From: Promethearchaeota archaeon
Lineage (GTDB): Archaea; Asgardarchaeota; Lokiarchaeia; Sigyniarchaeales; SOKP01
Reading direction: 5' to 3'
Length of the DNA: 64,000 nucleotides
Assembly: GCA_048938855.1 (NCBI GenBank)
Contig: JBHLLT010000016.1
Coordinates: 123 to 64,122, forward strand
The first letter of the stretch is position 1. Each line of letters opens with the position of its first letter. A program made the translations under genes and the position numbers. Positions 21,445 to 63,453 of the stretch are shown here, piece by piece. The notes under the pieces are model-generated. The model ran no database searches and was not told the origin of the DNA. It saw nothing but the letters and a program-made list of their open reading frames with translations.

Positions 21445-21549
21445 CGCAGCTGGAGGGATTCGAACCCCCGAGCGCTTTCGCGCACCGGCTTTCTTGATCT
21501 CAATAAATAATACTCGAGGCCGGCGTCTTACCATCTAGGCTACAGCTGC
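21445..21549 (-). tRNA. tRNA-Ser (anticodon CGA) with a ~22-nt intron at the canonical 37/38 position
   Basis: The reverse complement gives acceptor GCAGCTG/CAGCTGC, a D-loop with GG, anticodon stem CCGGC/GCCGG and loop CU-CGA-G[intron TATTATTTATTGAGATCAAGAA, 21491-21512]A. The long variable arm GCGC-GAAA-GCGC marks a type II tRNA. The T-arm is GGGGG-TTCGAAT-CCCTC and the discriminator is G. The D-stem has one C.A mismatch. Confidence 0.75.
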
Positions 21550-26555: not shown

Positions 26556-26557
26556 TA

Positions 26558-37900: not shown

Positions 37901-38785
37901 ATTTCAAATTTAGATGAAATGAGTTATTTATTACAAAAGCTTGATGAAAATGGTGATCCTATACCTGGTACTGCCGAAACAGGTTCTCTAGTAGCAGGAG
38001 TAGATGAGTTTATTTTGGACTTTAATACAGAAACAAGGCTAGATGGAGAATATTCAGTAATTGTGACTTTAGACAAAATGAACTGGGATCACAGAATTGC
38101 TATTATTTCATTGACAATAATGAAAAGAGAAGCGGATGTTACATTACCTGAACCTCCATTTGTTGGTACCAAAATATCAATCGCTTCAGGAGCAGCTTTA
38201 AATTTTGCTATTACTCTTACTGATCCAAATAATGAAACAGTTCCAAATGCTCCGATAAGAGGAGCAAATGTATATTTAACTATACAAGGTAGAGATATTC
38301 CATTTACTTATAATGGCAGTGGTGTTTATATTATTCAACCAACAGTTATTGCTGATGCCTTTTTTATGCCTCAAACATTTACAGCTACTCTCACTATTGA
38401 GAAACAGTATTTCTCCACTTCGGTAACTAGTATTACAGTAGTAGTTAATATGCAAGAAATCTTTGGATTTCCTATGTTCTATTTCTTGATGATAGTAGGA
38501 GCGGTTGTAGCCGTCGTAGGAAGTTTAGTTGCTTATCGTACCATCCAGAGAGCTAGAATTCCAAAGTTCGTTAAAAAAGTGAGAGAAATGAAGAAAAATA
38601 TAAAAGGAAAGAAAGATATTTCAGAATCACTATTATATCCAACTAAAGATGAATATATTGTGAAAAAATTAGGAGAAAAATGGGAAGTAATTGGATTATC
38701 ATTAGATGAAATTATGGGTCTCAGAGGTAAAAAGTCTAAGAAATTACCCGGAATGAATCAAGAATTTAAAGGAGGTGTTGATTAA
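34934..38785 (+). CDS. giant single-pass surface protein, module 3 (DUF2341-like + LamG/concanavalin-like + CarboxypepD_reg-like repeats, TM, conserved tail)
   Basis: 1283 aa. The DUF2341-like start is DPWWNVSYQWRQCINITNP...VRIVENN...YMYWGNAS. The LamG_3-like segment is FDGSHDFIYIEDS...VSCWFK...WHFACVVYDGVDKYIYVDN...IDEIRYFDYAVNPDEIQWL. The TM helix is FYFLMIVGAVVAVVGSLVAY. Confidence 0.8.
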   Translation: MKGLRIDSKKVISLTFLLILSLSSVLLLFPSNFLNSTEFNQNPEEDKKDNNFRPLLNGPIGEDPWWNVSYQWRQCINITNPGDYNLTNNFISIQFNYATLRDNYNMDPNLYDVRIVENNVVRKYYVKKDFPNLDTATIWFENNVTTGESEYDTYMYWGNASINNRGSKHLNYDPSGSSWWQFEEGSGGYDSIVHDSLDNADGHLYGSSSSYYPDYDSDSAVGEYSISFDGSHDFIYIEDSLHYTNPNEISAVTVSCWFKTSFSSSGNWDNWAFFDFDRSEYFNFFITGNGRIGFASSATGYSGQNDFFGSVSGLNDGEWHFACVVYDGVDKYIYVDNYAPEIWANAMGGNAFGTGTDRWGFIGDGSEATAENGNRNNFYYDGNIDEIRYFDYAVNPDEIQWLANYYSIDTNLLSVTERAAAVTITVKDIDNRLVPGAEVSLWKNSTDILVLRGVPYTEYSSSDGTVSFTKVPFGFYNITVNYTLNSGLYEEVVYDSRVQPPGEVEFKGLIVNVNVTADLWTIDFEVNDWDGDPFDHGFVQVGNATDYILETLTLDSGGTATFRWTDQPNYNYTVYYDNVDYLGNPTRLNSSTITYTGPAIYVEHVRTSMSKLDIRVIDDTETVPVEGITVRVENSSSGVHIIDLKTDDNGNAYGLTNSDVGFWYKRNTIYNLSLWVVTEQRTFRVNSSDQAFNPSTILDYYEYNLNSSSSLVFELDLNYQNRLSRFYNNSLVADYSVVFGQNMSFSITLETSDTGLPGPWVADDGVGTTISCIIKSTAIGNPTIYTKNMDYTINGTFTSEINSSRFSAGDYGKSYIVTLSGVKSYYNSPEDILFVISIDSISTGMSFHDYSSMPDELPINEVSQYYDELINITVKYYDKNNNQTLVADTFTYTWDYGSGTVNSDPLNPGYYTVEIDTSAATNVGKYLIKFTAGRENYTKIDNYGLFINILSRPTTINGEDGILYISQDIFIFKELNFTFIYLDEMKGTPISNLDEMSYLLQKLDENGDPIPGTAETGSLVAGVDEFILDFNTETRLDGEYSVIVTLDKMNWDHRIAIISLTIMKREADVTLPEPPFVGTKISIASGAALNFAITLTDPNNETVPNAPIRGANVYLTIQGRDIPFTYNGSGVYIIQPTVIADAFFMPQTFTATLTIEKQYFSTSVTSITVVVNMQEIFGFPMFYFLMIVGAVVAVVGSLVAYRTIQRARIPKFVKKVREMKKNIKGKKDISESLLYPTKDEYIVKKLGEKWEVIGLSLDEIMGLRGKKSKKLPGMNQEFKGGVD
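38771..38777 (+). promoter_or_regulatory. Shine-Dalgarno-like site for the module-3 partner gene
   Basis: GGAGGTG lies 7 nt upstream of the ATG at 38785, which overlaps the upstream TAA (TAATG). Confidence 0.6.
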
Positions 38786-39900
38786 TGCCAATAGGATTAG
38801 TAGTAATGAGATGGGATGAAAGAGTTGGAACTGAAATTCTTGCAAAATATCCTGAAGAAATTAATGTAACTGATAAAACCCTAATGCAAGTATACAGTAC
38901 TCATGAGTACAGTGGAGAATCTGGTATGATAAGTTTAATGATTGGTTCCTTAAACATTGCCTCATATTATACAGGACCTGATAAAGGATTTTATATCCTC
39001 TTACTTCTAAGCCTTGATGACGATCCTGATTCTTATGAGGGAGGATTGATTGACATATCACGCATAATTATCCAAAATATGAAAGATAATGCTTATACAT
39101 CAATGATCCCTACTTTATTTAGAAGGCTTTCCGTTTATCCTACATTAAATAATGAGCAACGACTTGCTATTACATATCAAGATGAAATTAAAAGGATGAT
39201 TCTAAACCGTTTAAGGGATGAAGGGGTGGTATCTAAGTCGGAATTAATGGTCTGGCTGAAAGACCAATATAAACAAGGTTTTGTAGATTTAGAAGGAGTG
39301 TTAATTGAACTTGTTAAACGTGATATCGTTAAAGAAACATCAGTTAAAGGTATGCCTTCAGAACTTATATTTTTAATACAAGATATAATTGCTTTAAGAG
39401 TACCTCCGGTTAAAATGTTAAAGGATCCTGCTACTCGAGGTCTACCTGTACAACTTGTAAATGATTACCTCATGGAAGTTAAGAAATTCTTTCAAAATTA
39501 CCGACCAACAGAAGGAGACAATCTTAGAATCATAGATATTCTTATCAATCCTCAAGTTTATGAAACTTTAAGGTTACTAAGAACAGCGATAGTTACTAAA
39601 AATGATCTTGAAAAACTAAGAAAAAAAGGGGTAGATGATCTTGATGATGTATTAAAAGTGCTATGGGACACTCAAATGATTCAAGTTTTCCAAGATGAGA
39701 GGAATAACGAATACTATGCCCTCCTGTCAGATTTCTATCTGAATTTAATATTCCCAAAATATCTCTTAAACATAATCAAGAATGTATATGATCAAAAGTC
39801 TAAAGCAAACCAAGTTTTAGTTGAATATCTAACTGTTTTAGAAAATTCTTATCAAGAAATTAAAGCAGCTGCTAAAGCTGAAGCAAAAGCTAAAGTATGA
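38785..39900 (+). CDS. cytoplasmic partner protein, module 3
   Basis: 371 aa starting MPIGLVVMRWDERVGTEI. It is collinear with the other two partners. Confidence 0.75.
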   Translation: MPIGLVVMRWDERVGTEILAKYPEEINVTDKTLMQVYSTHEYSGESGMISLMIGSLNIASYYTGPDKGFYILLLLSLDDDPDSYEGGLIDISRIIIQNMKDNAYTSMIPTLFRRLSVYPTLNNEQRLAITYQDEIKRMILNRLRDEGVVSKSELMVWLKDQYKQGFVDLEGVLIELVKRDIVKETSVKGMPSELIFLIQDIIALRVPPVKMLKDPATRGLPVQLVNDYLMEVKKFFQNYRPTEGDNLRIIDILINPQVYETLRLLRTAIVTKNDLEKLRKKGVDDLDDVLKVLWDTQMIQVFQDERNNEYYALLSDFYLNLIFPKYLLNIIKNVYDQKSKANQVLVEYLTVLENSYQEIKAAAKAEAKAKV

Positions 39901-40004: not shown

Positions 40005-41342
40005 GTGAATAAAATGGAAGGAGAATTTCCGTCTTGTGAACAGTATTATGATATACCTGAAGCGATTGGTTTAGATGGTGTGGATTTAGAAAAATATATC
40101 ATTGCTAGTTATATTATTAAGCGACCAAAAGGTATGAATGTTAATTATTTAACTCGCTTTGCCGCAATTGAACAATCTACTGGAACGTGGGTAAGAGTTC
40201 CTGCTGAAACTGCTGAAGTAAGAAAATACCATGTAGCAAGAGTGCTTGGAGTGTATGAGCTTCCTCATTGGGAATATGTAATACCTAAAGATATTAAAGA
40301 TAGACTATATTTCGCTCAAATCGCATTCCCAATAGAAAATATTAAAAATATGGGAATTCCAATGCTCTTTAGCACCGTTATTGGTAATATTAGTATAACT
40401 CATGGATTGAAATTAGTTGATCTCGCATTTCCTAAAGCATGGTTAGAAGATTTTAAAGGACCAAAATTTGGTATTGATGGAATCCGAAAACTTATGAAAA
40501 TTCCTGAACGCCCTCTCTTAAATAATATGGTTAAACCATGTACTGGTCATACAGCTGAAGTTGCGGCTGATCTAGTTTATCAGGCAGCAGTAGGAGGTTG
40601 TGATGTAGTAAAAGATGATGAGTTAATCTCTAATCCCCCCTTTAATACTCTTGAAGAGAGAATTGTAAAGGTTATGGAGGCTGTAGATAAAGCTGATTCT
40701 GAGAAAGGGGAAAAGACTTTATACACTATAAATATCACCACAAGATTTCCTGATATGTTTGAATACGCAGATAAGATGATTGAGTTAGGAGCTAATGCAT
40801 TAATGATAAATTATTTAACGACTGGTTATGAAGCATTAAGGCAGATAGCAGAAGATCCTTCTATAAATGTCCCAATTTTAGGTCATATGGATTTCGGTGG
40901 TACATATTTTGGAGGTGAATGGACAGGAATGACAAGCATGTTGACATTTGGGAAATTACCGAGAATTTGTGGGGCAGATACAGTTGTTATTCCAGCACCT
41001 TATGGTAAAGCTGAGATTGTAGAAGAGAGATATGAGCAAACTCTTAAAGCTCTTCGATATCCACTTAGTCATATTAAACCAACATTACCTATGCCATCAG
41101 GTGGAATTACACAGGGGATGGTAGAAAAATGTATTAAAGAGGCTGGGAAGGATATTCTTATTGGAAGTGGTGGTGGTATCCATAGCCATCCTGACGGTCC
41201 AATAGCAGGCGCAAGAGCATTTAGACAAGCTATAGATGCTGTGATGGAAGGTAAAAGTGTTAAAGAAGTTGCAAAAGAAAAAAAGGAATTGGGAATAGCC
41301 CTTGGTGTATGGGGTACTGGGAAAACTCAGCTTATTGAATAA
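40005..41342 (+). CDS. RuBisCO large-subunit-like protein (form III-related / form IV-like; several catalytic residues substituted)
   Basis: 445 aa. EQSTGTW, GNISI, GGCDVVKDDE (carbamyl-Lys motif), PSGG and GGGIHSHPDGPIAGARAFRQAIDA match RbcL. However, KPK is replaced by VKPCTG, HRAMH by GHMDFGG, and the His327 position is lost. Confidence 0.8.
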   Translation: MNKMEGEFPSCEQYYDIPEAIGLDGVDLEKYIIASYIIKRPKGMNVNYLTRFAAIEQSTGTWVRVPAETAEVRKYHVARVLGVYELPHWEYVIPKDIKDRLYFAQIAFPIENIKNMGIPMLFSTVIGNISITHGLKLVDLAFPKAWLEDFKGPKFGIDGIRKLMKIPERPLLNNMVKPCTGHTAEVAADLVYQAAVGGCDVVKDDELISNPPFNTLEERIVKVMEAVDKADSEKGEKTLYTINITTRFPDMFEYADKMIELGANALMINYLTTGYEALRQIAEDPSINVPILGHMDFGGTYFGGEWTGMTSMLTFGKLPRICGADTVVIPAPYGKAEIVEERYEQTLKALRYPLSHIKPTLPMPSGGITQGMVEKCIKEAGKDILIGSGGGIHSHPDGPIAGARAFRQAIDAVMEGKSVKEVAKEKKELGIALGVWGTGKTQLIE

Positions 41343-41368: not shown

Positions 41369-42328
41369 TTAATATAATAACGAATCTTTTAGAATAACCT
41401 TGATATTCTTATCAAAATAATTTGGATTCATTTCTTCTCCGAGGGGATTACCTCTCAAATCTAAATATTTAAGTTTTTTTAAACTTAAAATATAATCTAC
41501 GTTCTTAATTTCACTGATATTATTATTTGTTAAAATTAAATGCGTTAATTCTTTTAATTGAATTAACTCTTTAATGTTATCAATATTATTATTCGATAAA
41601 TCAATTTTTTTTAAAGATTTTAGATATTTTAATCCTAAAATTTCCGAAAGGGATTGTATATTGTTTTTCCATCCAAAAGGAGTGCCTTTGACTTCATATT
41701 CTAAATAATCTGATAAATCTAATTCTATAATTAATCCTTTTTGTGGATCTAATTCATAATATACATTAGAATATTTGCTTATTAGATTTTTAATCGTAAA
41801 ATAATTAATTAAAATTTCTGCTAATTCACTATGGGTAAATTTATCTATCTGTTTTGTTTTAGTGAATTTTTTAATTACTTTTTTATATTTTTTATTTTCA
41901 ATCCTTTTTTCTTTATTAAGATATTTCGTTTTTATTATCTCTTTGATTTTCTTAACTAAAATCAGCTTAGATTCATCATTATTTATCCTTTCTAATGATT
42001 GGATTATTATAACCAGGCATTCATAATCTGTTTCATGGATAAGTGCCCATTTTATGGGATTAATAGCTTTATCAAGGAATCTATCTTTTAAAATTTTGGT
42101 TGCCGCATTTCTTATTTTTTCATTTGAATCAGAAATAAGTAGATTTTCTAAAAATTTAAAGAGTTCATCACTAATTAACTCAATTTTTTCTAAATTTACA
42201 ATAGCACTTAATCTTATACTTTCATCCTCACTGTTTTCAACTAAAGACCTTATTAAATCAAATGCAGTATTTTTTTTGATCTTATTTTTGCTTAGATCTT
42301 CATATATTTCATCAGGAGTTAAATTCAT
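41369..42328 (-). CDS. HEAT-like + leucine-rich repeat protein (short paralogue)
   Basis: 319 aa. The N-terminal approximately 130 aa are collinear with 47776-49278 and 49521-51011 (LENLLISDSNEKIRNAA...PIKWAL.HE). The C-terminal LRRs read L..LDLS.N.I..I. Confidence 0.7.
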   Translation of the reverse strand: MNLTPDEIYEDLSKNKIKKNTAFDLIRSLVENSEDESIRLSAIVNLEKIELISDELFKFLENLLISDSNEKIRNAATKILKDRFLDKAINPIKWALIHETDYECLVIIIQSLERINNDESKLILVKKIKEIIKTKYLNKEKRIENKKYKKVIKKFTKTKQIDKFTHSELAEILINYFTIKNLISKYSNVYYELDPQKGLIIELDLSDYLEYEVKGTPFGWKNNIQSLSEILGLKYLKSLKKIDLSNNNIDNIKELIQLKELTHLILTNNNISEIKNVDYILSLKKLKYLDLRGNPLGEEMNPNYFDKNIKVILKDSLLY

Positions 42329-47775: not shown

Positions 47776-49278
47776 TCATTTGTAAACCTTTAATCCTCTA
47801 TCCTCTAGTCTTTTAAGAAATTCTGGTATTTTCCTTATATAATTATTAAAATTTAAGTACAGAATTCTTAATGATGAGAGATTGCCTAAAGTTTTAGGAA
47901 GAAATTTTAAATTATTCCCCCATAAATTTAACTCTTCTAATGAAGAAAGTGAATCTATCCATTCTGGTATTCTTGTGAGATTATTCCAACTTAAATCTAA
48001 CTTTTTTAGGGAATTTAAATTTTTAAATGGTTCTGGTAAGATTGAAAGATTGTTATTCCTTAAAATTAGAGTTTCTAAGGAATCTATTGAACCTATTTCA
48101 TCAGGAAGAGTTTTTATATTACAATCGTAGAGATTTAATTCTCTTAGAGAATTTAAATTTCTTAATAGAAAAAAATCAATTGAAAGTTTATTCCCTCCTA
48201 AACCTAAAGATCCCAAACTTTGAAGTTTACTAATTGAATCAGGAAGAAATTTAAGCTTATTTAAGCCTAATTCTAATTTAATTAAAGATTTAAATTCTTC
48301 CATTGATTCTGGTAAAAAATTTAACTTGTTCCCATGTAAATCCAAAATTTCTAATGATCTTAGGTTAGTGATTTCAGGTGGAAGAAATTTAATATTATTA
48401 TGTCTTAAATTTAAAGTTTTCAACTTCTTTAATCTCCCAATAGAGATTGGAATTTCATTAATCTTATTGTATTTCAAGTTTAAGTACTCCAATGATTTTA
48501 AAAAGCCGAAAGATTCAGGTAAACTCCTAAGATTATTATTACTGAGATCTAAATAGGTAAGATATTCAAGATTTCCGATTGTCTTAGGCAATTTTGTTAT
48601 TCTATTAATTTTTAAATCCAATAATCTTAGATATTTAAGAGTACTAATGAATTCTGGTAATTTTTTTAAAATTTTCCATCCAAAAACATTAGTACTAATT
48701 CCGGATAGGTCTAATGATGTTACAAGACCTTCATCCAATTTATAACTAATATCATTGAATTCCTTTTTATAATATCCTATAAGGATATAATTACTTAATA
48801 TTTCTGAAAGTTGTATTGATGTGTAACTAGTTATTTTTTTAGATTTAATAACATCTCTTAGACTTTCGTTAAACTCATATAGCTCCAAATTATTGATCTT
48901 ATCCAGTAAAAATGTTTTAGCTTTTTCACTATTTATCATACCTATTGTTGAAACAATAGAAATAAGGCAAGATGTAGAAGATTCATGTTGGAAAGCCCAT
49001 TTCATTGGCTTTAAAGCTTTTTGTATAAAGTTTTGTGAGATTGCTTTGATAGCGGTATTTCTTACTTCTTCATGAGAATCAGATATTATAAGATTTTCAA
49101 ATAAATTGAAAACTTCTTCATCTTTTGAACCAATTTTTACTAAAAAATCAATACTTTCAATTCTTAATTTTGGATCATCGAAATTATTAATTAAAGCAAA
49201 TAATTGATTTACAGCCGATTGCTTTTCCAAATTTCTATTTTGGTATTCTTTATAAATTAAGCTGGGAGATATTTTCAT
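47776..49278 (-). CDS. HEAT-like + leucine-rich repeat protein
   Basis: 500 aa. The N-terminal helical repeats are FENLIISDSHEEVRNTAIKAI...PMKWAFQHE. They are followed by about 13 LRRs of the L..L.L..N.L..LP..IG.L..L type. Confidence 0.75.
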   Translation of the reverse strand: MKISPSLIYKEYQNRNLEKQSAVNQLFALINNFDDPKLRIESIDFLVKIGSKDEEVFNLFENLIISDSHEEVRNTAIKAISQNFIQKALKPMKWAFQHESSTSCLISIVSTIGMINSEKAKTFLLDKINNLELYEFNESLRDVIKSKKITSYTSIQLSEILSNYILIGYYKKEFNDISYKLDEGLVTSLDLSGISTNVFGWKILKKLPEFISTLKYLRLLDLKINRITKLPKTIGNLEYLTYLDLSNNNLRSLPESFGFLKSLEYLNLKYNKINEIPISIGRLKKLKTLNLRHNNIKFLPPEITNLRSLEILDLHGNKLNFLPESMEEFKSLIKLELGLNKLKFLPDSISKLQSLGSLGLGGNKLSIDFFLLRNLNSLRELNLYDCNIKTLPDEIGSIDSLETLILRNNNLSILPEPFKNLNSLKKLDLSWNNLTRIPEWIDSLSSLEELNLWGNNLKFLPKTLGNLSSLRILYLNFNNYIRKIPEFLKRLEDRGLKVYK

Positions 49279-49520
49279 GAAAATTAAATATTCTAATACA
49301 ATCTAATCGATATATACAAAAATTTAAATTAAAATTTAAACTGATCCAGCTATAATTATAGTATACCTTACAATTTATCGAGGTATAATTTCTTCAATAA
49401 AATGCTCTACAATTTCAAAAATTATTTCAAAATTATGCATCCTGTACATTTTTTCTCATTAATCTTAATCTCTATATTGCCCTTTCTCGTCATATTAGAC
49501 TTAATACTTATTAATTTGTG

Positions 49521-51011
49521 TTAAATTTTTATGTTTAAATCTTTATTTCTTTCATAATCTTTCAAAAATGATGGTAGGTGCTCGAACCTATTAAAACTTA
49601 GATCTAAGGTTTTTAGATTAGATAAATTACAAATTGATTCAGGGAGAGAAGTAAGTTGATTTCCCCAGAGATTTAGTTCTTCTAATGAAGATAATTCACA
49701 GATCCATTCTGGAAGAAATGTAAAGTTATTCCAACTTAAATTAAGGTTTCTAAGATTTTTAAGATTTTTCATAGATTCAGGTAATTGAGACAATTGATTA
49801 TTTCGTAAAATAAGCATTTCTAAACGAGAAAGTGTGCCTAATGAATTAGGTAATTTATCAATTTTATTATCATATAAATCTAATATTTTTAATGATTGAA
49901 ATAGAGAAATCCATTTAGGAAGTTTTTTCAATTTATTTCCACCAATCCCCAGTCTCTCTAATGAAGTAAGAGATTTTACTTTTGTTGGGATTTCCAAAAA
50001 ATTATTCCAACCTAATTCTAACTCGATAATCGAATTATTCAGTTCAAATCCAATTGAATCTAATTTATTTCCATGTAGATTTAAAATCTTAAGATTTTTA
50101 AGTGGTTTTATTGATCTAGGGATTTTATTTATCATATTATTTCTTATATTTAAAACTTGAAGTGATTTTAACCTACTTAGAGAGTTTGGAAGATTGTGTA
50201 ATCTATTAGACTTTAAATTTAGACTCTTTAATGATTTTAATTTAAAAATTGAATTTGGAAGATTACTTAGCTTATTATAACTTAAATCTAAAGAAACTAT
50301 TGAAACTGATTCAACTGAAATTTCTTTAAGTTCTGAGAGATTGTTAAATCTCATATCAAGTTCTTCTAAATACTTCAGAGAATATATAAAATCTAAGAAA
50401 TTTGAAATAGAAATTCCTTGGGGATCAACATTTGTTAAATCTAATTTTGTGATATAACCCCATTTATTAAATTCATATTTTATAAATCCAAATTTACTTT
50501 TTAGAGATTTAATAAAATAATAGTTTACTAACAGATCAGCAAGAACTTGGATACTTAAATTTTTAAATTCTTCAGTTCTGACAATTATTTCCAAATTATA
50601 CTTATTCTCTTGCTGATAGAAATATTTTAATTTTTCAATGATGATTAATTTGGATTTTTTATTATTAATCTTTGATAATGTAGAGATAATTGTAATAAGA
50701 CAGATTATTGCTTTCTCATGTTCAAGAGCCCATTTCATTGGTTTCAACGCTTTCTCTAAAAATAGTTGCTGTATTAGGGAAGCTGCTTTATTTCTTATAG
50801 TTTCATTTGAATCTGAGATTAGTAGATTCTCTAAAAGTGTAAATATTTTATCCTCTTTAACCTGTATTTTTTCTAAGATCTCAATACTTTCTAATCTTGT
50901 TGAAAAATCATCAGTATTTTCAATTAAAGTAATTAATAAGTCAAGAGCTGACGCATAATCCAAATTTTTTCTCTTTAAATCCTGATAAATTGATTTTGGT
51001 GTTAAGGACAT
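49521..51011 (-). CDS. HEAT-like + leucine-rich repeat protein (tandem paralogue)
   Basis: 496 aa with the same architecture and a collinear N-terminus (LENLLISDSNETIRNKAASL...PMKWALEHE). Confidence 0.75.
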   Translation of the reverse strand: MSLTPKSIYQDLKRKNLDYASALDLLITLIENTDDFSTRLESIEILEKIQVKEDKIFTLLENLLISDSNETIRNKAASLIQQLFLEKALKPMKWALEHEKAIICLITIISTLSKINNKKSKLIIIEKLKYFYQQENKYNLEIIVRTEEFKNLSIQVLADLLVNYYFIKSLKSKFGFIKYEFNKWGYITKLDLTNVDPQGISISNFLDFIYSLKYLEELDMRFNNLSELKEISVESVSIVSLDLSYNKLSNLPNSIFKLKSLKSLNLKSNRLHNLPNSLSRLKSLQVLNIRNNMINKIPRSIKPLKNLKILNLHGNKLDSIGFELNNSIIELELGWNNFLEIPTKVKSLTSLERLGIGGNKLKKLPKWISLFQSLKILDLYDNKIDKLPNSLGTLSRLEMLILRNNQLSQLPESMKNLKNLRNLNLSWNNFTFLPEWICELSSLEELNLWGNQLTSLPESICNLSNLKTLDLSFNRFEHLPSFLKDYERNKDLNIKI

Positions 51012-51041: not shown

Positions 51042-52610
51042 TTAAACTCTTTCTATAACCATCCCACCTAATCGAATAGGTCCCCCGGTTGCATTATATA
51101 CCTTTTCTGCTTTCCTTAATTTTGATTCACTATGAGAATAGATTCTAAAAACTAATTCTCCTTCTTTTACTTTTGCTCCTTGTTTTTTAATTATTTCAAT
51201 TCCAGATGTTCTGGAACTAGGACATCCTGCTGTTTTTGCTATTTGATTTATTATTGAGTTATTTACTTCTACTATATAACCTTCTTTAGAACTGAAAAAT
51301 TCCTTGATATTAGGGCCGAGTTTTATATCTTCAGGTGTTATTTCAGGATTTCCTCCTTGAGCTTTAATAATTTTTTTCATCTTTTCATAAGCTTTCCCGG
51401 ATCGTAGTATTTCTTTAGCCATAGTCTGCCCCATACCCTTTTGAGCTTTACCACTCATTTCTAAAATTATTCCTGCTAAATCTGTAGATTTTTCTATTAA
51501 AGAATTGGGTCCAGCCGAGTAATCACGTAATAGAGTAAGTGCTTCTTTAGCTTCTAAAGCAGGACCTACAGCATGGCCGATAGGTTGATTAGCTAGTGTA
51601 AGTGCACATTCAGCCTCAATTCCTACGTTAGCTGCAATTTCTTTAAATATATATGCAAATTGTTTTCCTTTATCGGGTGTCGCAAATTTAGTTCCCTCTC
51701 CCACAGGTATATCAAGTACTAGCTTTTTTACTCCTAATGAAAGTTTTTTTGTTAGGATAGAAGGAATCATAAGACCAACTGGGTCCATATGTAAAGGTCG
51801 TTCAATCTCAATTAATATATTATCTGCTGGGGCTGTTTCCAGAGCACCACCCCATATTAGGCATGCATTCTCTTCAGCTACAATTTTATTTAATTCTTCT
51901 GGTGTAAAAGCAACAGGAGCTAATGCTTCCATAGAATCTGCTGTGCCTGAAGGTGAAGTTATAGCTCTTGTTGAAGATTTTGGTATTGTTAAGCCAGCAG
52001 CAGCTACAATTGGTACGATAATTAAAGAAACCTTATTCCCGGGAACGCCACCTTTTAGCAAGATTTACGAACTGTAGATCTTAGTGCTATGTTTATCGTA
52101 GACGTCCATCCCGAAATAAAAAATCTCTCCACTACGTGTTTCTGCTAATGTTAAAGCTGTCATTTCCTCATTATCCATCCCATTTATCGAAACTCCAGTA
52201 ATGAATGCTGCTAGATCGATTCGAGATAAAGAACCAGAAACTGCATCTGTGATGATTCCGTTTATTTCTTCACTTGTTAACTTTAATCCTTTTATTTTCT
52301 TCTGAATGAATTTAAATGAATCAGGTGGATCAGCAGGTTTTATAGAAACTGCAGCTCCATTTGTTAATTCTTTTTTTTCCCTTAAGAGATTTTTAAATAC
52401 TCCAATTTCTCCTGGTTCAACAATAGTACCTAAATAGTCAATTTGGATAATTGCGACCCAAAATTTCTCTTGAATAGATTTTGACTTTATATTTTTTACA
52501 TAGACGCGTTCTCCTGCTTTCTGTCCTAATTCTGCGGCATCATTAATATTTAAAACAACATCCTTAGCATTACCGGTTTCAAAATTAATTTGTTTAACTT
52601 TTAATTTCAT
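51042..52610 (-). CDS. AMP phosphorylase / thymidine phosphorylase family protein, interrupted by a 30-nt in-frame insertion containing TAA
   Basis: Track ORFs 52065-52610 and 51042-52061 are in the same frame. Together they read ...VYDKHST[KIYSS*ILLK]GGVPGNKVSLIIVPIVAAAGLTIPKSSTRAITSPSGTADSMEA..., that is the family motif DKHS(T/I)GGVPGNK split by 10 codons. The product is about 512 aa without the insert. Confidence 0.8.
52053..52083 (-). other. candidate bulge-helix-bulge (BHB) intervening sequence within the AMP phosphorylase mRNA
   Basis: On the - strand the RNA is CA[UAGC](ACU)[AAGAUCUAC]AGUUC[GUAAAUCUU][GCUA](AAA)GGUGGC. This gives a 4-bp central helix flanked by two 3-nt bulges on opposite strands, plus an inner helix with 8 of 9 pairs. 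Cutting after the second nt of each bulge removes exactly 30 nt. Confidence 0.45.
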
Positions 52611-52721: not shown

Positions 52722-54020
52722 TTATAATTTTATGGAAAGCGGGAACTCTTTAATTTCTCCAATTTGGTTTTGATCTGGATCTTTAAAGGTAATTTTTATT
52801 TTTATTACATAATCTCCTGCTTCTATAGGCTTAAGGTTAATCTCCCATTTCATATTTTCATTTGATCTAAGTGAATAAATTTGTTTTTTTAAAGTACCTC
52901 TCATAACTTTAAGATTTTCAGGAAAATTAATTTCAATGTTAAGATCCAAAGCTTCACCTTCACTTTTATTTTCAATAAGAATCTCTAGAGGAAAAGATTG
53001 GCCAATTAAAGGAGGTCTTAGTTTTTTCATGGAAATTTCCAACGTTGGAGGAGGCGATATTAAAGTTGGGTAGAGTATTTCGGTGTGTTCATAGGAAAAA
53101 TTCAATTTTCCATTGATTTCTGAAGTTAAAACAGTTGGTCCAATTGTTGGATTTTCCATTTGAAAATGTGGCTTGATTAATAGAGGTAATTGATAAGTCT
53201 GACCTGGTTTTAAAATAATTGGTAAATCTGGTTTTTTATGAAGTGTAAAATTGTCAGTTAGTTGAAGCCCAATTTTAGTAATTTTTAATTCATTTATGGT
53301 ATAATTGTAAAAAGATTGTTGCGTAATATCTAAGAGAGGGTTTGTATCGATATCCATTGTTACAGTTATAACATCATTGGTTGTGTATAGATCTTTATCT
53401 AAAGTCATTTTCGTGATTAATGAAACAATAGTTTTAGCGATTACTACTGCTGATTTTACTAAATTCGTCTCACCCTCATATAAATTTAAATTACCAAAAT
53501 TTGATTCAATTTTTTTAACATAATTTTGCTTTTTATCTTTTGTGGCAACTGTTAGATCTTTAATTAACTTAATTAAAGGACTCTCTTTAAAGTAATTATC
53601 CTCTACAGAACTCTTTATTTTTTTTACAACATTTAATCCTTCTTCTTGCTTTCCTTCTATAAACAAACATAAGTAGGATAAAGATGAAAAAATCACGAAA
53701 AAATGATTTTGGTCTGAAATATTACTAAGGCTAGGAATGTAATTAAGTGATTCTTTATAGTATTGATAAGCCTCAGAAAAGTTATTAATCAGAAGAGAAG
53801 AATTTCCAGCATTCCTTAAAAATTCTAAGCCGTTTAGATATTTATCTTCATTAAAAGCACTTTTAGCAGCGTTAAAAAAGCAGTCTGTTGCAATTTCATA
53901 ATTTCCTAGTTCTAAGAAATTAATACCAGCGTTATTGTATAGTTTTGCTGCTCGTTTATATTGCATTGCTTGATATAATTGCTCTGCTTTAGCTAATTGT
54001 TTTTGAGGATCTTTTCCCAT
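52722..54020 (-). CDS. hypothetical protein (TPR-like N-terminal half, beta-sandwich-like C-terminal half)
   Basis: 432 aa. The N-terminus has TPR-like helices (AEQLYQAMQYKRAAKLYNNAGINFLELGNYEIATDCF). The C-terminal part is rich in beta-strand patterns resembling CARDB/DUF11-type domains, which is a weak call. Confidence 0.55.
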   Translation of the reverse strand: MGKDPQKQLAKAEQLYQAMQYKRAAKLYNNAGINFLELGNYEIATDCFFNAAKSAFNEDKYLNGLEFLRNAGNSSLLINNFSEAYQYYKESLNYIPSLSNISDQNHFFVIFSSLSYLCLFIEGKQEEGLNVVKKIKSSVEDNYFKESPLIKLIKDLTVATKDKKQNYVKKIESNFGNLNLYEGETNLVKSAVVIAKTIVSLITKMTLDKDLYTTNDVITVTMDIDTNPLLDITQQSFYNYTINELKITKIGLQLTDNFTLHKKPDLPIILKPGQTYQLPLLIKPHFQMENPTIGPTVLTSEINGKLNFSYEHTEILYPTLISPPPTLEISMKKLRPPLIGQSFPLEILIENKSEGEALDLNIEINFPENLKVMRGTLKKQIYSLRSNENMKWEINLKPIEAGDYVIKIKITFKDPDQNQIGEIKEFPLSIKL

Positions 54021-54120
54021 CTAAAATTCACATAAAATAAAGTTATTAATAAATATGAAAATAATTTTTAAAATAAAAAGTTAAAAGAAAGATAAATAAT
54101 ATTTCTAAAAAATTAAAAAT

Positions 54121-54162
54121 ATTAAATTCCGAAAACCTTCACAAGGTTAGTCTCCATTCAAC
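54121..54162 (-). promoter_or_regulatory. candidate SECIS-like stem-loop in the 3' UTR of the hdrA-mvhD operon
   Basis: On the - strand the RNA is GUUGAAU-GGA-GA(CU)AACCUU-GUG-AAGGUU(U)UC-GGA-AUUUAAU. It has a 7-bp lower stem, a symmetric GGA/GGA internal loop (potential tandem G.A pairs) and an upper helix. It begins 24 nt after the mvhD stop codon and is the only G/C-containing structured element in this spacer. Confidence 0.3.
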
Positions 54163-54186
54163 TATAATTTGTTTGAAAAGATCATT

Positions 54187-54657
54187 CTATTCGGTTTTAT
54201 TATTTTTAGATTCTTTCTCCTGTTTTTTAGAAGAATTAGAATCTTTTAAAGGATTGCTACCTAAATTTTTGATTGTTTCTGAAATGCGAGTTGCTTCAGT
54301 TTGAAAACGTTGACCTTCAGCCGCACTACAGTGAAACATTTGAATTCTTTCAGGTGAAATTCCTATAGTTTTTAAAATTTCTTTTGCATAAGTCACATTT
54401 CTTTCAGCTACCAAATTACCCGTTTCATAATCACATTCACCTTTGTATCAAGCTCCAATAACAACACCGTCTGCACCTTTACCTATAGCACGCATCATCA
54501 ATGAGGGAGTAACTCGTCCAGAACAATTAATCCTTACGGGTCTCAGTGTAGCAGGATATTGCGCTCGAATTGTTCCAGCCATATCTCCTGCTCCATATCC
54601 TCATTTCCAACATAAGAACGCTAAAATTTTAATATCTCCATTAGAACTTACGGTCAT
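54187..54657 (-). CDS. mvhD: MvhD/VhuD-like (methyl-viologen-reducing hydrogenase delta subunit family) selenoprotein with two in-frame UGA codons
   Basis: The ATG at 54657 gives MTVSSNGDIKILAFLCWK-U-GYGAGDMAG...INCSGRV...GADGVVIGA-U-YKGECDYETGN..., continuous with track ORF 54187-54414. The TGA codons at 54601-54603 and 54448-54450 align with the Cys of the family motifs CxWC.Y.G.D and GC..G.C.Y. Confidence 0.8.
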
Positions 54658-54670
54658 ATTTTTCACCTCT

Positions 54671-56653
54671 TTAAATTTCCTCCAAAATTGCGTCTATTTG
54701 TTTTTCATATTGAGGTTCTCTGTAATATCTAAGCGTTATAGCCTCTGAAGGACAATTCGCTAAACATGTTCCACAACCCCTACATAAGATTTCATTTACT
54801 TCTGCTCCATCATCTCCTAGGGTTATAGCATTATAGGGGCAATTCAATTCACATAAACCACATTTAGCACATCGTTCTTTATTAACAGCAGCCCTGATCA
54901 GTAAAATTCGATATTTATCTTTGCCCATAAGTCTTGCGAGTGAAGATGCTGCAGCTCTACCTTGAGCTATAGACTCAACTATAGATTTTGGACCTTGACT
55001 AACTCCTGCAAGAACGATTCCCGGAATTTTTGTATCAATGGGATTTAGTCTTGCATGAAATTCTTTAAAGAAGCCATCTTGGCTTGTTTCTAATTTAAGT
55101 ATCTTTTCTATTTTTTTAACTCCGATAGCTGGTACCATTGAAGCTGAAAGTATAACCAAATCAAATTCTAGTTCTTTTAGTCCACTTGAACCTAATGTGT
55201 TCTGCATGATTATTTTTAAATTGTGTGTCTCTGGGTCTTCTTTAATCCTACTAATATTCGTCCTTATATATTTTATTCCTTCCTGTCTTGAAAGTGTAAA
55301 GTATTCTTCATAATCTTTACCAGCAGCTCGCATATCCATATACGCAACTGAGATATCCGCCTCGGGGTAATGTTGTTTAATTAATTTACTATTTTTAATA
55401 GAAATCATACAACATACTCCTGCACTACAATAAGTATTCATATTAAGATCTCTTGAGCCAACGCATTGAATAAATAATATTCTCTTCGGTTCTTTTCCAT
55501 CCGAAGGTCTTTTTAAATGTCCTATCGTAGGGCCGTTTGGGGCTAACATTCTTTCAAGCTTTAATTGAGTTATTACATTAGGATATTTATTATATCCTAA
55601 ATAACCTGTTGGTGGTTCAAATTCATCCCAACCAGTTGCAACAATAATCGATCCCACTTCTACTTCAACGATTTCATCTTGTTGATCAAAATCAATCGCA
55701 TTTACCTCACAAGCAACTTTACATAATTCGCATTTTATACATCGATCCATATCAATTTGAGCTAATGAAGGAACTGCTTGTGCAAACGCTATATAAATAG
55801 CTTTCCTCGGATCCATCCCTTCGTTGAATTCATTATATCCATATGCAGGACACACTTCAAAACAGGCACCACATCCGTTGCAATCATTTGTTACATAACG
55901 AGCTCTTTTTCTTATCTTTACTTTGAAATTACCGACAAATCCAGAAACCTCATCAACTTCACTATATGTGTATAAATTTAGATCTGGAGTTCTTGATGCT
56001 TGTAGCATCACAGGACCTAATATTCATATACTACAATCATCAGTGGGAAATGTTCGATCTAATTTAGCCATTTTACCTCCTATCGTAGGACTTTTTTCTA
56101 CGAGATGCACTTCAAATCCTTCCTCAGCAAGATCAATCCCTGCTGATAGACCAGCAACACCACCACCAATAATTAATGCTTTTTTTGTAATATCGACTTC
56201 TTTGACTAGAATCTTTTCTAAAACAGCAGCTCTAGCGACAGCAGATCGAATTATATCTTCCGCAACCTTTTGAGCACCAACCTCATCTTGTTTATGGACA
56301 AAACTAGAATGTTCGCGAATATTAGCAAATTCGAGATATGATTGGTCTAATCCCATTGATTCTAGTACACTTTTGAAAACGGGTTCATGAGTTTTTGGAG
56401 TGCAGGATACCACAACTAATCTATTTGCTTTGCTTTCAATCATTTTTTCTTTGATATACTCTGCCCCGGGTTCTGTACAAAGACTAATGTAATCCAATGA
56501 TTCAACAACATTAGGAAGGGTTTTTGAATATTCCGCTAAATTTTTAGTGTCGATGACCCCTGCGATGTTGATACCTCATTGGCAAATGAATACGGCAATC
56601 CTAGGTGTTAATTCTTCGTCATATTGTACTGTTTCGTCTTTAGTTTCTACCAT
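54671..56653 (-). CDS. hdrA: heterodisulfide reductase subunit A (HdrA) selenoprotein with two in-frame UGA codons
   Basis: A single frame runs from the ATG at 56653. It reads MVETKDETVQYDEELTPRIAVFICQ-U-GINIAGVID (TGA at 56576-56578; the family motif is VCHCG.NI), then GGGVAGLSAG (FAD), then DRTFPTDDCSI-U-ILGPVM (TGA at 56024-56026; the family motif is FPT.DCS.CIL.P). It then continues into track ORF 54671-56011 with several CxxCxxCxxxCP ferredoxin motifs. The total of 660 aa is the typical HdrA length. Confidence 0.85.
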
Positions 56654-56861
56654 TGCTTATTACCTTTTGATTTATTCTTGGTATTTTCCTCCAAATTGTT
56701 TATTTTAATAATGATGAAAATACAAATGATTTAATCTAATTAAATAAATTTAAATCAAAAATGTTTCTTATATCTTTTATAATATTATCAGTTAAAAACC
56801 ATATTTATGATAAGACAATTTTTAAAAAATTAAAAGAAACTTCAAAATTAAGGTAATACTT

Positions 56862-57278
56862 ATGCTTTTTCAATTTCCTCTAAGTCAAGGGATGATTGAG
56901 ATTATTATCGCCGCTTGTTTACTTGTCGTTGATATATTTATTTTAAAGATAGGTTTAGCTATAACCAAAGCTCAAGAAAAAACTAATTTTAAATGGGTTG
57001 CAGGTAGTTTTGGCATACAATTTGCTTTAATATTCTTTATTAGTACACCCATGATATTAGGTGGTTGGACAGGTCAATTTTCTACTGGAGATCCATTGAC
57101 ATTCATTCCATTGATAAGTCTTACAGTTGTCTTTTGTACATTTATTGATTTACACGTTATAAATATCATTCATAAAATTGGAATGGGGAAAGCATTGATA
57201 ATTGCGATATTGATCTTAGGTCCTGTTACTTATGCTATGTATCTTTTAGGTTCGAATCTAGGATCTCTGGTTGGATAA
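56862..57278 (+). CDS. small integral membrane protein
   Basis: 138 aa with 4 predicted hydrophobic helices. Confidence 0.5.
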   Translation: MLFQFPLSQGMIEIIIAACLLVVDIFILKIGLAITKAQEKTNFKWVAGSFGIQFALIFFISTPMILGGWTGQFSTGDPLTFIPLISLTVVFCTFIDLHVINIIHKIGMGKALIIAILILGPVTYAMYLLGSNLGSLVG

Positions 57279-60450: not shown

Positions 60451-61095
60451 ATGTCAGATGATACCTTTTATAACGAAATTTCAGATGCTATTGTAAACCT
60501 TGATGAAGAAAAAGCCATTGAATATGCAAATAAGGCCATAATTGAAAATATGAATTTAATTGAGGTTATCGAAAAAGGTTTTGCTGAAGGAATTCGAACT
60601 ATTGGAGAATTATGGGAAGACGGTGAATATTTCTTACCAGAACTAATGCGAGGTGCACAAATAATGCAAAATTGTTTAGATCTTCTCATACCTCATCTTC
60701 AAAACTCCTCAGCACAAATTTCAAGGGGTAAAGTAGTTATAGCAACCATTGAGGGGGATATTCACTCAATTGGAAAAACAATTGTAGCTACAATGTTAAG
60801 AGCTTATGGGTATGAAGTTTATGATTTAGGAGCGGATGTTCCCGTCGAGAAAATTGTAGAAGAAGCTATTGAGAAAGAAGCAGATATCATTGGGGTTTCA
60901 GCCTTATTAACAACCACCATGACGAGTCAGAAGAAAGTTATTGAGCTTTTAAAAGAGAAAAATGTAGCTAATAAATTCAAAGTTATTCTTGGTGGTGCTC
61001 CTGTAACAAATTCATGGGTAGAAGAGTGTAACGCTGATGGTTTTGCAGAAAATGCAATAGAAGCGGTTAAATTGGTAAAATCTCTTTTAAGTTAG
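60451..61095 (+). CDS. cobalamin-binding corrinoid protein (methyltransferase cognate corrinoid protein)
   Basis: 214 aa. It has an N-terminal helical cap, then the B12-binding motif EGDIHSIGK (DxHxxG), SALLTTT and LGGAP. Confidence 0.85.
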   Translation: MSDDTFYNEISDAIVNLDEEKAIEYANKAIIENMNLIEVIEKGFAEGIRTIGELWEDGEYFLPELMRGAQIMQNCLDLLIPHLQNSSAQISRGKVVIATIEGDIHSIGKTIVATMLRAYGYEVYDLGADVPVEKIVEEAIEKEADIIGVSALLTTTMTSQKKVIELLKEKNVANKFKVILGGAPVTNSWVEECNADGFAENAIEAVKLVKSLLS

Positions 61096-61122: not shown

Positions 61123-62001
61123 ATGTTATTTCATGATTGGTTAAAAGATGATTCAAAAATTATACTTTTTGATGGAGGATTTGGGAGTGAATTAATCAAA
61201 AGGGGTTTAGAATCAGGAAAAATCCCTGATATTTTAAATATTGAACAACCAAATATAATATCTGAAATCCATCAATCTTATTATGATGTTGGTTCGGATA
61301 TGTGTCAAACCAATACTTTTGGTTCAACTCCCTTAAATTTATCTCGTCATAATCTTGAAAATCGAATAGAAGATATTATTGAGAATGCAATAAAAAATAT
61401 ACAAAAAGTTTGCCCATCAGGATGTTTGATTGTTGGAGATATTGGTCCAACAGGCGAATTTAGGCCACCAGTAGGGAATGCTTCAATTGATCAATGGTAT
61501 TCAAGTTATTCAACTCAAGTTAAATTACTAGAAAAAGGAGTGGATCTTTGGCATATTGAGACAATTTCAGATCTTGAAGAAATGTTAGCTGCAATAAAAG
61601 CCGTACGAGAAGTTTCTAAAAAAGCCTTGATTGCTTCAATCACGTATAAAAAGACAAAAAGAGGATTCTTTACAATTATGGGGGATTCATTAGAAAAATG
61701 TATAGAAACCTTGAATCATGAAGAAGTAGATGTTATTGGAGCAAATTGCACAATAGGATCCAATGATATGCTTGAATTACTAAAACTAGCTAAAAACTAT
61801 ACTAGTAAACCTTTTTCTGTTAAACCTAATGCTGGTCAACCCATTGTTGAAAACGGTAAGACTTATTATTATCAACCTGTAGAAGAATTCGCCAGTGACA
61901 TACATGAAATGATTAAACTTGGAGCGAAAATAGTAGGAGGATGTTGTGGTACTTCACCAAAAACAATAATGTCAATTAGAAATATTATAGATTCAATTTA
62001 A
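61123..62001 (+). CDS. homocysteine S-methyltransferase-domain protein (zinc-thiol methyltransferase, MetH N-terminal-domain-like)
   Basis: 292 aa. LFDGGFGSEL, QTNTFG, GANC and GGCCGT (three Zn-ligand Cys) are the Pfam S-methyl_trans pattern. Confidence 0.8.
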   Translation: MLFHDWLKDDSKIILFDGGFGSELIKRGLESGKIPDILNIEQPNIISEIHQSYYDVGSDMCQTNTFGSTPLNLSRHNLENRIEDIIENAIKNIQKVCPSGCLIVGDIGPTGEFRPPVGNASIDQWYSSYSTQVKLLEKGVDLWHIETISDLEEMLAAIKAVREVSKKALIASITYKKTKRGFFTIMGDSLEKCIETLNHEEVDVIGANCTIGSNDMLELLKLAKNYTSKPFSVKPNAGQPIVENGKTYYYQPVEEFASDIHEMIKLGAKIVGGCCGTSPKTIMSIRNIIDSI

Positions 62002-62010
62002 AAATAAAAA

Positions 62011-63453
62011 ATGAAAGAGAATGTAATTATGTCAATAATTAGACCAAAGATAAAAATATTAGATGATAACCATAAGCAAAAGATTTTAGAAGAAGCTAAG
62101 ATGATTCTCGAAACTCAAGGAGTTTTTATAGAAAATCATGAAGCAATCGAGATGTTTAATAAGCATGGCATTAATCACGAAGGTTTGCGCTATTATATCC
62201 CACCAGATTTGATAAATAAATCTTTGAGTACTGTACCGAGTGAAATTACTCTTTATGATCGAGAAGGAAATAAGCATAGCGCATTGAAGGGGGATAACAT
62301 TAACTACGATCCAGGATCAGCAGCAATTTTTATACTTGATGAGGAAACAGGAGATATAAGGGAAGGACTGTCAAAAGATTTCATAAGATTCTCTAAAATT
62401 GTTGAACAATTGGAATTTATTGATGCTCAAAGTACAGCTTTAATTTATAAAGATGTACCAAAAGACGCTCAAGATTGGCATAGATTATATTTAGCGCTAT
62501 CTAATTGTTATAAACCTGTCGTAACTGGAACATTCCGTAAAGAAAGTTTCTCAATAATGCGCGAAATCCTATTAGCATGTAGATTATCAGAAGATGATTT
62601 GGCGAAAAAACCACTCGCTATTTTTGATGCATGTCCTAGTCCACCTCTCAAATGGTCAGATCTTACAACTCAATCATTAATAGATGCAGCAAAAAGTATG
62701 ATTCCATCAGAATTTGTTTCAATGCCATTAGCAGGAGCAAATGCTCCGATTACTTTAATTGGGTCCATTACTCAACATTGTGCAGAATGTCTTGCTGGAG
62801 TAGTAATTGCTCAACTCACTAATAACGGAGCACCATTAGTATGGGGAGGTTCTCCTGCTGTTTTTGATATGAAACATGGAACAACCCCAATGGGTGCTAT
62901 AGAAACGATGATGATAAACTTAGGAGATGTTGAAATAGGCAAATTCTTGAATTTGCCAACACATGCATATATGTCCCTTAGTGATGCTAAGATTCCTGAT
63001 AATCAAGCTGGTTTTGAAGCAGGTATGGGTGCTTTATTAGCAGGTTTAGCAGGAATTAACATGATTTCAGGTCCTGGAATGCTTGATTTTGAATCAACTC
63101 AAAGTATTGAAAAGATAATTATTGATAATGAAATCATTGGGATGGTTAAAAGATTAATTCAGGGGATTGAAGATCATGGGTCACCATTTGCTTCAGATAT
63201 TCTAAAAGATTATGATAATACACAAGAACTATTGTCTCATACCTCAACATTAAAGTACTTTAGAAAAGAATTATTTTTTCCTAGTCCAATAGTGGATAGA
63301 ATGACTCGTGATTCATGGAAGGATAGTGGTTCAAAATCTACTAGAGGTAGAGCTAAGGAAGAAGCAATTAAGTTATTAAAGAAAAGCTCTATTAAACCAA
63401 TTGAGGATATTTTATTGAAGGAATTTGATAAAATAGTCAGATCATACTTATAA
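62011..63453 (+). CDS. MttB-superfamily methyltransferase, non-pyrrolysine member
   Basis: 480 aa, uninterrupted with no in-frame TAG. The N-terminal ...ILDDNHKQKILEEAKMILETQGVFIENHEAIEMFNKHG and the overall length fit the trimethylamine methyltransferase (MttB) family. Confidence 0.75.
   Translation: MKENVIMSIIRPKIKILDDNHKQKILEEAKMILETQGVFIENHEAIEMFNKHGINHEGLRYYIPPDLINKSLSTVPSEITLYDREGNKHSALKGDNINYDPGSAAIFILDEETGDIREGLSKDFIRFSKIVEQLEFIDAQSTALIYKDVPKDAQDWHRLYLALSNCYKPVVTGTFRKESFSIMREILLACRLSEDDLAKKPLAIFDACPSPPLKWSDLTTQSLIDAAKSMIPSEFVSMPLAGANAPITLIGSITQHCAECLAGVVIAQLTNNGAPLVWGGSPAVFDMKHGTTPMGAIETMMINLGDVEIGKFLNLPTHAYMSLSDAKIPDNQAGFEAGMGALLAGLAGINMISGPGMLDFESTQSIEKIIIDNEIIGMVKRLIQGIEDHGSPFASDILKDYDNTQELLSHTSTLKYFRKELFFPSPIVDRMTRDSWKDSGSKSTRGRAKEEAIKLLKKSSIKPIEDILLKEFDKIVRSYL

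Follow-up and report, generated by a model that had tools for sequence, protein, structure and literature searches.

Tandem gene pairs that encode an HdrA with multiple selenocysteine (Sec) residues and a VhuD with two Sec residues have been described for Lokiarchaeota (Mariotti et al. 2016, PMC4989117), and the Sec trait was reported in 85.9% of Lokiarchaeia/Helarchaeales genomes in the Asgard selenoproteome of 2024 (PMC11227280). Each pair carries a single Sec insertion sequence (SECIS) element of the lokiSECIS type, located just past the coding sequence (CDS) downstream of vhuD (PMC4989117). Here, we analysed a stretch of 64,000 nucleotides from a Promethearchaeota archaeon, a Lokiarchaeia-type Asgard (contig JBHLLT010000016.1; referred to as the window, to which all positions refer; G+C content 29.7%), which carries on its minus strand an hdrA gene followed by mvhD/vhuD, with four in-frame TGA codons. 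The system is already known, the locus being a further orthologue of the published Lokiarchaeota HdrA-VhuD pairs (2016, 2024), and the 2016 paper does describe the multi-Sec proteins that a first-pass annotation of the sequence had attributed to it. We assign a probability of roughly 0.9 to the reading that the four TGAs are Sec codons served by a lokiSECIS downstream of mvhD. As in the Asgard HdrA-VhuD(FrhD) pairs, the gene order is hdrA-vhuD on the same strand with a very short spacer and a single SECIS after vhuD, the canonical Sec near position 200 is accompanied by an extra Sec at a conserved Cys of HdrA, VhuD has two Sec, and the hdrA stop is never UGA. Nothing essential differs from the published pairs, the best genome match showing 93% HdrA identity.

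Translation of the minus strand clearly demonstrated that hdrA (54671-56653) runs from the ATG at 56653 through 660 codons to the TAA at 54671-54673 and is broken by TGA at codons 26 and 210 alone. The respective codons are located at 56576-56578 (context FICQ-U-GINI, in the CxC motif of the N-terminal Fe-S domain) and at 56024-56026 (context DCSI-U-IL, the canonical HdrA Sec position). Likewise, mvhD (54187-54657) extends from the ATG at 54657 through 156 codons to the TAG at 54187-54189 and is broken by codons 19 and 70 alone, which are located at 54601-54603 (context FLCWK-U-GYGAGD) and at 54448-54450 (context GA-U-YKGECDY); the sequence around codon 19 reads ILAFLCWK-U-GYGAGDMAGTIR. The open reading frame (ORF) list splits both genes exactly at these four TGAs. 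The first-pass annotation had proposed that both frames are open apart from the four TGAs, and the translation confirmed this, with all four quoted motif contexts present.

The identity of the two products was examined by comparison with solved structures and Pfam, for which Cys was substituted at the TGAs of the HdrA product. HdrA matched five solved structures end to end, the best being 5odc_A with an E value of 5.5e-202 (residues 17-657 on 4-650). Its Pfam domains are Fer4 and FAD/NAD-binding, and the five-domain architecture of the family is present, with an N-terminal Fe-S domain, a thioredoxin-reductase-like FAD domain, an inserted ferredoxin and a C-terminal ferredoxin. The mvhD product was identified as FlpD (PF02662) with an E value of 8.4e-42 and 142.5 bits (cut-off 22.3), the match spanning the whole profile (positions 1-123 of 123), and it matched six solved MvhD/VhuD chains with E values of 1e-29 to 1e-33. 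The assignment of the genes to HdrA and MvhD/VhuD, made earlier from the letters alone, is therefore borne out by 5odc_A and PF02662.

All four TGAs are located on Cys or Sec columns of these alignments, as had been expected from family motifs. In each of the five solved HdrAs, the residue opposite HdrA codon 26 is the second Cys of the N-terminal CxC motif (Cys13 in 5odc numbering). At codon 210, four structures have Cys and 9sfi_A of M. maripaludis has X; with an offset of 13 the codon corresponds to residue 197, which is named Sec197 in the description of this Hdr-Vhu-Fwd structure (PMC13518236). In MvhD, codons 19 and 70 fall on the two X residues of 9sfi_K, which is VhuD of M. maripaludis, and 8rvu_F and 8rvv_F have Cys at both positions. 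The two MvhD codons are 51 codons apart at CxxU and GxU positions, matching the spacing of approximately 50 codons in the selenoprotein form. Thus, three of the four TGAs (HdrA 210, MvhD 19 and 70) coincide with Sec positions of M. maripaludis HdrA and VhuD, and the X residues at these three sites in 9sfi, together with Sec197, agree with the earlier statement that both proteins are selenoproteins in Methanococcales. The columns of C24, U26, C59 and C84 in HdrA are Cys in all five structures, as read from the alignment. When the HdrA N-terminal domain was compared with MvhD by BLASTP, the match was weak (E 0.069) and limited to the surroundings of the C-x(1-2)-U motif, and it is suggestive, at the level of sequence, that the two might be paralogues with Sec at equivalent positions, although this is not established.

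The window proteins resemble those of Methanococcales and Methanopyrus, which have HdrA with Sec197 and VhuD with two Sec, the E values to 9sfi being 3e-194 for HdrA and 1.2e-33 for VhuD, and Sec is located at identical columns (HdrA 210/197 and both VhuD sites). In contrast, methanogen HdrA has Cys at window codon 26; Sec26 represents an Asgard-specific extra position.

To characterize the conservation of the TGAs in Asgard relatives, one genome per species was scanned, TGA was translated as U, and the resulting 80 loci were aligned with the window. These loci derive from metagenome-assembled genomes (MAGs) of Promethearchaeota/Promethearchaeia, from other Asgard-labelled MAGs or from MAGs labelled "uncultured archaeon", and their HdrA is 74-93% identical to that of the window. 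The NCBI phylum labels vary (Hermod-, Hod-, Odin- and Thorarchaeota, Promethearchaeota) among loci that are 88-93% identical and therefore look unreliable. TGA was found at HdrA codon 26 in 79 of 79 aligned sequences having a residue there and at codon 210 in 81 of 81, and the MvhD codons 19 and 70 were TGA in 77 of 78 and 78 of 78, respectively. For the segments following the two HdrA TGAs, the mean protein identity to the window was 0.85 and 0.86, and for those following the two MvhD TGAs it was 0.90 and 0.81. Synteny was kept in 70 of the 80 loci, comprising an OMP-decarboxylase-like gene, a divergent gene for a 138-aa membrane protein, hdrA, mvhD and a gene for a 432-aa protein. This downstream 432-aa gene was considered as a redox partner and rejected, as it has no Pfam match or Cys motifs and is set off by oligo-U tracts. 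Genes for mvhA/G and hdrB/C are not adjacent to hdrA-mvhD here.

In addition to the two TGAs present in the window gene, the HdrA Cys59 column is TGA in 30 of 80 aligned sequences and the Cys84 column in one of 81. The lineage thus uses at least four HdrA Sec positions, consistent with the "five possible positions" given by Mariotti et al. (2016, PMC4989117), and the counts indicate that exchange of Sec and Cys at the N-terminal Fe-S cysteines is ongoing inside this orthologous group.

Gene callers treat such loci as if the TGAs were nonsense mutations truncating HdrA and MvhD, and the first-pass annotation had predicted that they would fragment the genes. This was indeed observed. A 445-aa HdrA product that begins at the ATG immediately following the second TGA occurs as an exact match in a public protein collection, and on the near-identical contig JBHLLN010000075.1 (GCA_048885565.1) the mvhD region carries no called gene. 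The cluster of the 445-aa product has 34 members, those listed being mostly truncated forms of 428-449 aa and shorter partials, under the names "4Fe-4S binding protein" or "heterodisulfide reductase subunit A". Pseudogenes or assembly errors would account for such calls. However, 77-81 of 78-81 sequences, assembled independently of one another, carry TGA at these codons, the segments after each TGA are 81-90% identical to the window, and the orthologues show neither frameshifts nor relaxed constraint. Moreover, each TGA is located on a Cys/Sec column and a covarying SECIS follows the operon. The conserved TGAs together with the conserved downstream segments effectively rule out pseudogenes and sequencing errors, an explanation that we regard as hardly credible.

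The candidate recoding signal begins 1 nt past the mvhD TAG, at 54151-54185 on the minus strand, and has the form AUGA-UCUUUUCAA-ACAAAUUAUAG-UUGAAUGGA-GA. It consists of AUGA (54185-54182), a helix formed by UCUUUUCAA and UUGAAUGGA in which eight of nine positions are paired, an A-rich 11-nt apical loop ACAAAUUAUAG ending in AG, and GA (54152-54151). According to Mariotti et al. (2016, PMC4989117), a lokiSECIS has AUGA directly before and GA directly after a 9-bp stem, the 3′ base flank being GA (or AA), and an 11-nt loop with the first five nucleotides A-rich and the last a G, usually preceded by A. The window element shows every feature of this definition; it differs from the published lokiSECIS in that its loop begins with ACAAA rather than AAAAA.

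For covariation analysis, 63 distinct orthologous elements were aligned with MAFFT, the window being excluded. The AUGA and GA columns are invariant among them save for a few GUGA variants, and all nine helix pairs show changes on both sides. The number of cells changed on both sides was 156, compared to 54 ± 11 in column shuffles and 5-14 when the partner was slid by 1-3 columns. A covariance model built from this window-free alignment (R1) detected the element at 54127-54196 with 74.3 bits and an E value of 1.9e-18. This was its sole match in the window below E 0.9; the others, with E values near 1, were dismissed as chance. Among the orthologous loci, the strict pattern (AUGA, 9, 11, GA) was found after mvhD in 51 of 78, out of a total of 57 sites in 1.135 Mb on both strands, and a relaxed pattern with at most two mismatches in 74 of the 75 that extend as far as the site. 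A scan of the 64 kb with the generic lokiSECIS pattern yielded one match of canonical geometry. Another, weak pattern match, which has an 8-bp stem and a 13-nt loop and falls within an aminotransferase gene (15207, minus strand), was attributed to chance, as approximately 0.6 sites are expected in shuffles.

The four UGAs are located 265, 418, 1841 and 2393 nt upstream of the AUGA. Since the first hdrA UGA is thus 2393 nt away and lies beyond a cistron boundary, which is unusual, hdrA might use a separate signal for Sec insertion, for example, a bacterial-style element in the coding region. We consider this unlikely: R1 and the generic pattern scan each find one canonical element in the window, the spacer between hdrA and mvhD is merely 13 nt long, and one element per pair is also found in both surveys (PMC4989117, PMC11227280). 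Furthermore, UGA serves as the hdrA stop in none of the 80 loci, and the window hdrA ends with UAA and mvhD with UAG. Avoidance of UGA as the hdrA stop is expected if a distal SECIS can act on hdrA codons.

Elements described from other organisms share some of these features. As in the eukaryotic type I SECIS, which has a kink-turn AUGA/GA quartet and unpaired As in its apical loop, an AUGA...GA core surrounds helix II, the apical loop is A-rich, the site is in the 3′ untranslated region (UTR) and action would take place at a distance. In contrast to the eukaryotic element, helix II is shorter (9 bp), one element is present for two cistrons and no Rfam SECIS matches at E ≤ 10. A homologue of SBP2 was not detected in Lokiarchaeota (PMC4989117). 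The methanogen SECIS is of the GAA_A-bulge type, AUGA...GAC occurring there in the VhuD element alone. Vertebrate Selenoprotein P likewise has several UGAs per mRNA that are recoded from a distal 3′ element; it has two SECIS and a single ORF, whereas one element is present here for four UGAs in two ORFs (a comparison made in PMC4989117).

Several observations weigh against the proposed decoding. Searches with ARAGORN, Rfam and Pfam found no gene for tRNA-Sec, EFSec, PSTK, SepSecS or SPS within the 64-kb window. The Asgard selenoprotein literature that we found contains neither protein-level nor 75Se evidence. The SECIS region is no more stable than shuffled sequences (z of −0.24 and −0.51 for the 3′ UTR and a 74-nt element, respectively), and as folding energy is not distinctive, it is the covariation that supports the SECIS. 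Helix II has one U-U mismatch in the window and two in the closest relatives, and the sequences used for covariation were chosen by at least seven of nine pairs, which inflates the percentage paired while leaving the counts of both-sides changes and the independent covariance model match uninflated. In addition, no SECIS family was detected by Rfam in a scan of the whole window at gathering thresholds or in a scan of 53800-57000 at E ≤ 10. With no Sec machinery found in the 64-kb window and the Sec trait of the organism taken from relatives and the literature, Sec decoding represents a very strong inference and not a demonstration.

While ARAGORN detected no tRNA in the window, Rfam reported one of 105 nt at 21445-21549 (minus strand, 43 bits) that ARAGORN missed. 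By eye it is a class II tRNA with a long variable arm, the anticodon CGA (Ser) and an intron of approximately 20 nt in the anticodon loop. It was rejected as tRNA-Sec because its anticodon is CGA and not UCA.

Since no genes of the Sec machinery were found in the 64-kb window, the UGAs might also be read by other means, namely, genome-wide reassignment to Trp or Gly, near-cognate decoding or read-through with Cys, with the hairpin playing no role. Among the 48 ORFs of the window, however, 37 end with TAA, six with TGA and five with TAG, and in-frame TGA occurs in hdrA and mvhD alone. TGA being a normal stop in six ORFs and in-frame only in these two, the UGA code is not reassigned. The columns concerned are Cys/Sec rather than Trp or Gly, M. 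maripaludis has experimentally modelled Sec at three of the four, and the downstream element has all defining lokiSECIS features and covaries. We therefore regard such a reading as very unlikely. Chance is excluded by the confinement of in-frame TGAs to two of 48 ORFs together with their placement on Cys/Sec columns and the conservation of the TGA codons. Another TGA, at 17592-17594 (plus strand), lies between the same-frame ORFs 16716-17594 (292 aa, without Pfam match) and 17598-18335 (245 aa, hexapeptide repeats), which are one codon apart. As no SECIS-like element is present nearby, we read it as an ordinary stop between adjacent genes.

Taken as Sec codons, the four TGAs would belong to a bicistronic hdrA-mvhD operon encoding two selenoproteins. 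The 13-nt spacer carries a Shine-Dalgarno-like motif, GAGGUGA (54663-54669, minus strand), 6 nt before the mvhD ATG, which suggests a bicistronic operon with presumably coupled translation. Two oligo-U tracts, U5 and U6, located just 3′ of the SECIS (54107-54119, minus strand), represent a candidate archaeal transcription terminator of the bicistronic mRNA. The UGAs at HdrA codons 26 and 210 and MvhD codons 19 and 70 would be recoded by a single eukaryote-like 3′-UTR SECIS with a kink-turn AUGA/GA core acting across the cistron boundary. Of the two predicted products, HdrA is the flavin-based electron-bifurcating subunit and MvhD the [2Fe-2S] electron-transfer subunit, with Sec in place of Cys at positions that may act as Fe-S ligands or in redox relays. 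We infer from the data above that Sec is inserted by tRNA-Sec and EFSec, that one SECIS is used for four codons and that the genes are co-transcribed, and likewise infer what each Sec does chemically.

Two roles have been put forward for the position corresponding to HdrA codon 210. Cys197 of one HdrA serves as a ligand of the N-terminal [4Fe-4S] cluster in the other HdrA of the dimer (PMC9012536), and for Sec197 of M. maripaludis, a Cys-Sec selenylsulfide relay between cluster A3 and FAD has been proposed (PMC13518236). Applied to the window protein, U210 might either ligate the N-terminal [4Fe-4S] cluster of the partner HdrA or form a selenylsulfide relay, and U26 is part of the CxC motif in the N-terminal domain. 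With Sec26 and Sec210, a single N-terminal [4Fe-4S] site would have two selenolates within it or next to it, an arrangement that bears on the question of which role Sec197 plays in electron bifurcation.

The orthologue alignment points to additional helices around the SECIS core, which together with it would form an extended element at 54127-54196 (minus strand). A lower helix pairs CCGAA (54190-54194) with UUCGG (54129-54133), its 5′ arm overlapping the final sense codons of mvhD. The GA is followed by another hairpin, AACCUU-GUG-AAGGUU (54134-54148), which precedes the 3′ arm of this helix. In the orthologues, the pairing of CCGA(A) with (U)UCGG approximately 20 nt beyond the GA is conserved, and the second hairpin reads ACCUU-GUG-AAGGU in the window and ACCAU...AUGGU in other clades. 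All three helices were predicted by RNAalifold without guidance. Pair 4 of the second hairpin covaries (UA, AU, UG, CG) and is paired in 56 of 63 sequences compared to 31 in shuffles. The lower helix is near-invariant with sparse covariation, GCGAA/UUCGC being observed once, CCGAU/AUCGG in four sequences and CCGU/ACGG once. CCGAA is kept in two registers (ACC-GAA-UAG and CCG-AAU-GAA-UGA), and its conservation in both reading-frame registers argues for constraint at the RNA level. An alternative pairing of AAACC with GGUUU is possible.

The main texts of the SECIS papers that we consulted contain no description of the lower helix and second hairpin for Asgard hdrA/vhuD; they mention an "extra stem" in VhuD of Methanococcales and, in frhA and selD, lower stems that are specific to the family. 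The two helices thus appear to be a plausible, unproven refinement and possibly a new detail. That the hdrA-mvhD SECIS folds into a three-way junction, in which the lower helix encloses the kink-turn/helix II module and the second hairpin, is a tentative idea that we consider rather doubtful. If true, such a junction could enable the recoding of as many as six UGAs by one element, across cistrons and at distances above 2 kb, possibly because the element is held at the terminating ribosome or binds a second protein.

As a discovery the locus adds little, since the pairs are the flagship example of the 2016 paper and the 2024 survey lists hundreds of selenoprotein genes from these families. Part of its practical value lies in the 63-sequence alignment, which provides unusually clean covariation support for lokiSECIS and points to the extra conserved helices. 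The public annotation of the locus and its relatives is wrong, which has practical consequences as well. The public HdrA form lacks the N-terminal Fe-S domain and the start of the FAD domain, and mvhD is missing; reconstructions of Asgard hydrogen and electron-bifurcation metabolism based on called genes consequently under-count intact HdrA-MvhD modules.

Several other features of the window were recorded. A gene of the AMP/thymidine-phosphorylase family (51042-52610, minus strand) is split into same-frame ORFs of 181 and 339 aa by an insert of exactly 30 nt at 52053-52082 (minus strand; AAGAUCUACAGUUCGUAAAUCUUGCUAAAA) with an in-frame TAA at 52065-67. The insert is located between the DKHST and GGVPG codons, within the conserved KHSTGG motif. 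It was found at the same site in nine of 22 orthologous loci (L005, L008, L009, L013, L014, L015, L016, L023 and L035), and the motif is uninterrupted in the other 13. The insert can form a 9-bp hairpin, of which five pairs covary among 10 sequences with 98.5% of cells paired. GCUA/GUUA of the insert can pair with exon UAGC to give a 4-bp helix with 3-nt bulges (ACU and AAA), that is, a relaxed bulge-helix-bulge (BHB) of the HBh′ form, and cleavage behind the second nucleotide of each bulge excises 30 nt and re-forms HSTGG. We therefore consider the insert a candidate pre-mRNA BHB intron; alternatively, the gene could be truly split, with translation restarting at a TTG. A model of the insert (R2) detected no second copy in the window. 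To our knowledge, pre-mRNA BHB introns are so far known mainly from crenarchaeal cbf5. A broad-specificity (αβ)2 splicing endonuclease has been reported for Asgard archaea (PMC5829648).

A homologue of the RuBisCO large subunit is encoded at 40005-41342 (plus strand), 10 kb from the AMP-phosphorylase-family gene, and the two genes suggest the archaeal AMP-salvage (pentose-bisphosphate) pathway. Rfam further reported PYLIS_3, the mttB pyrrolysine (Pyl) insertion sequence, with 46 bits at 62979-63076 (plus strand), inside an MttB-family ORF (62011-63453; Pfam MTTB, E 7e-73) that has no in-frame TAG. Genes for a B12-binding corrinoid protein and an S-methyltransferase (60451-61095 and 61123-62001) are located upstream on the same strand. 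This is probably a non-Pyl methyltransferase system of the MttB superfamily, the PYLIS_3 match reflecting homology of the coding sequence.

Three consecutive gene pairs on the plus strand (22896-27661, 27832-33326 and 34934-39900) each consist of a large ORF (1219, 1460 and 1283 aa, respectively) followed by one of approximately 370 aa. Pairs 1 and 2 share 59% identity between their small ORFs, and pairs 1 and 3 share 34% identity over 888 aa between their large ORFs, whose aligned C-terminal part includes a hydrophobic segment resembling a membrane anchor. Apart from a Laminin_G_3 domain in one, none of these ORFs has a Pfam match. The three pairs appear to be a tandemly amplified cassette. 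Finally, the window encodes proteins of the eukaryotic-signature type, comprising two Gtr1/RagA-like GTPases, an Arf/Roc/Ras-like GTPase and three leucine-rich repeat proteins, two of them with HEAT repeats (11552-12517, 20643-21431, 33368-34408, 41369-42328 and 47776-51011), and their density fits the Asgard origin of the sequence.

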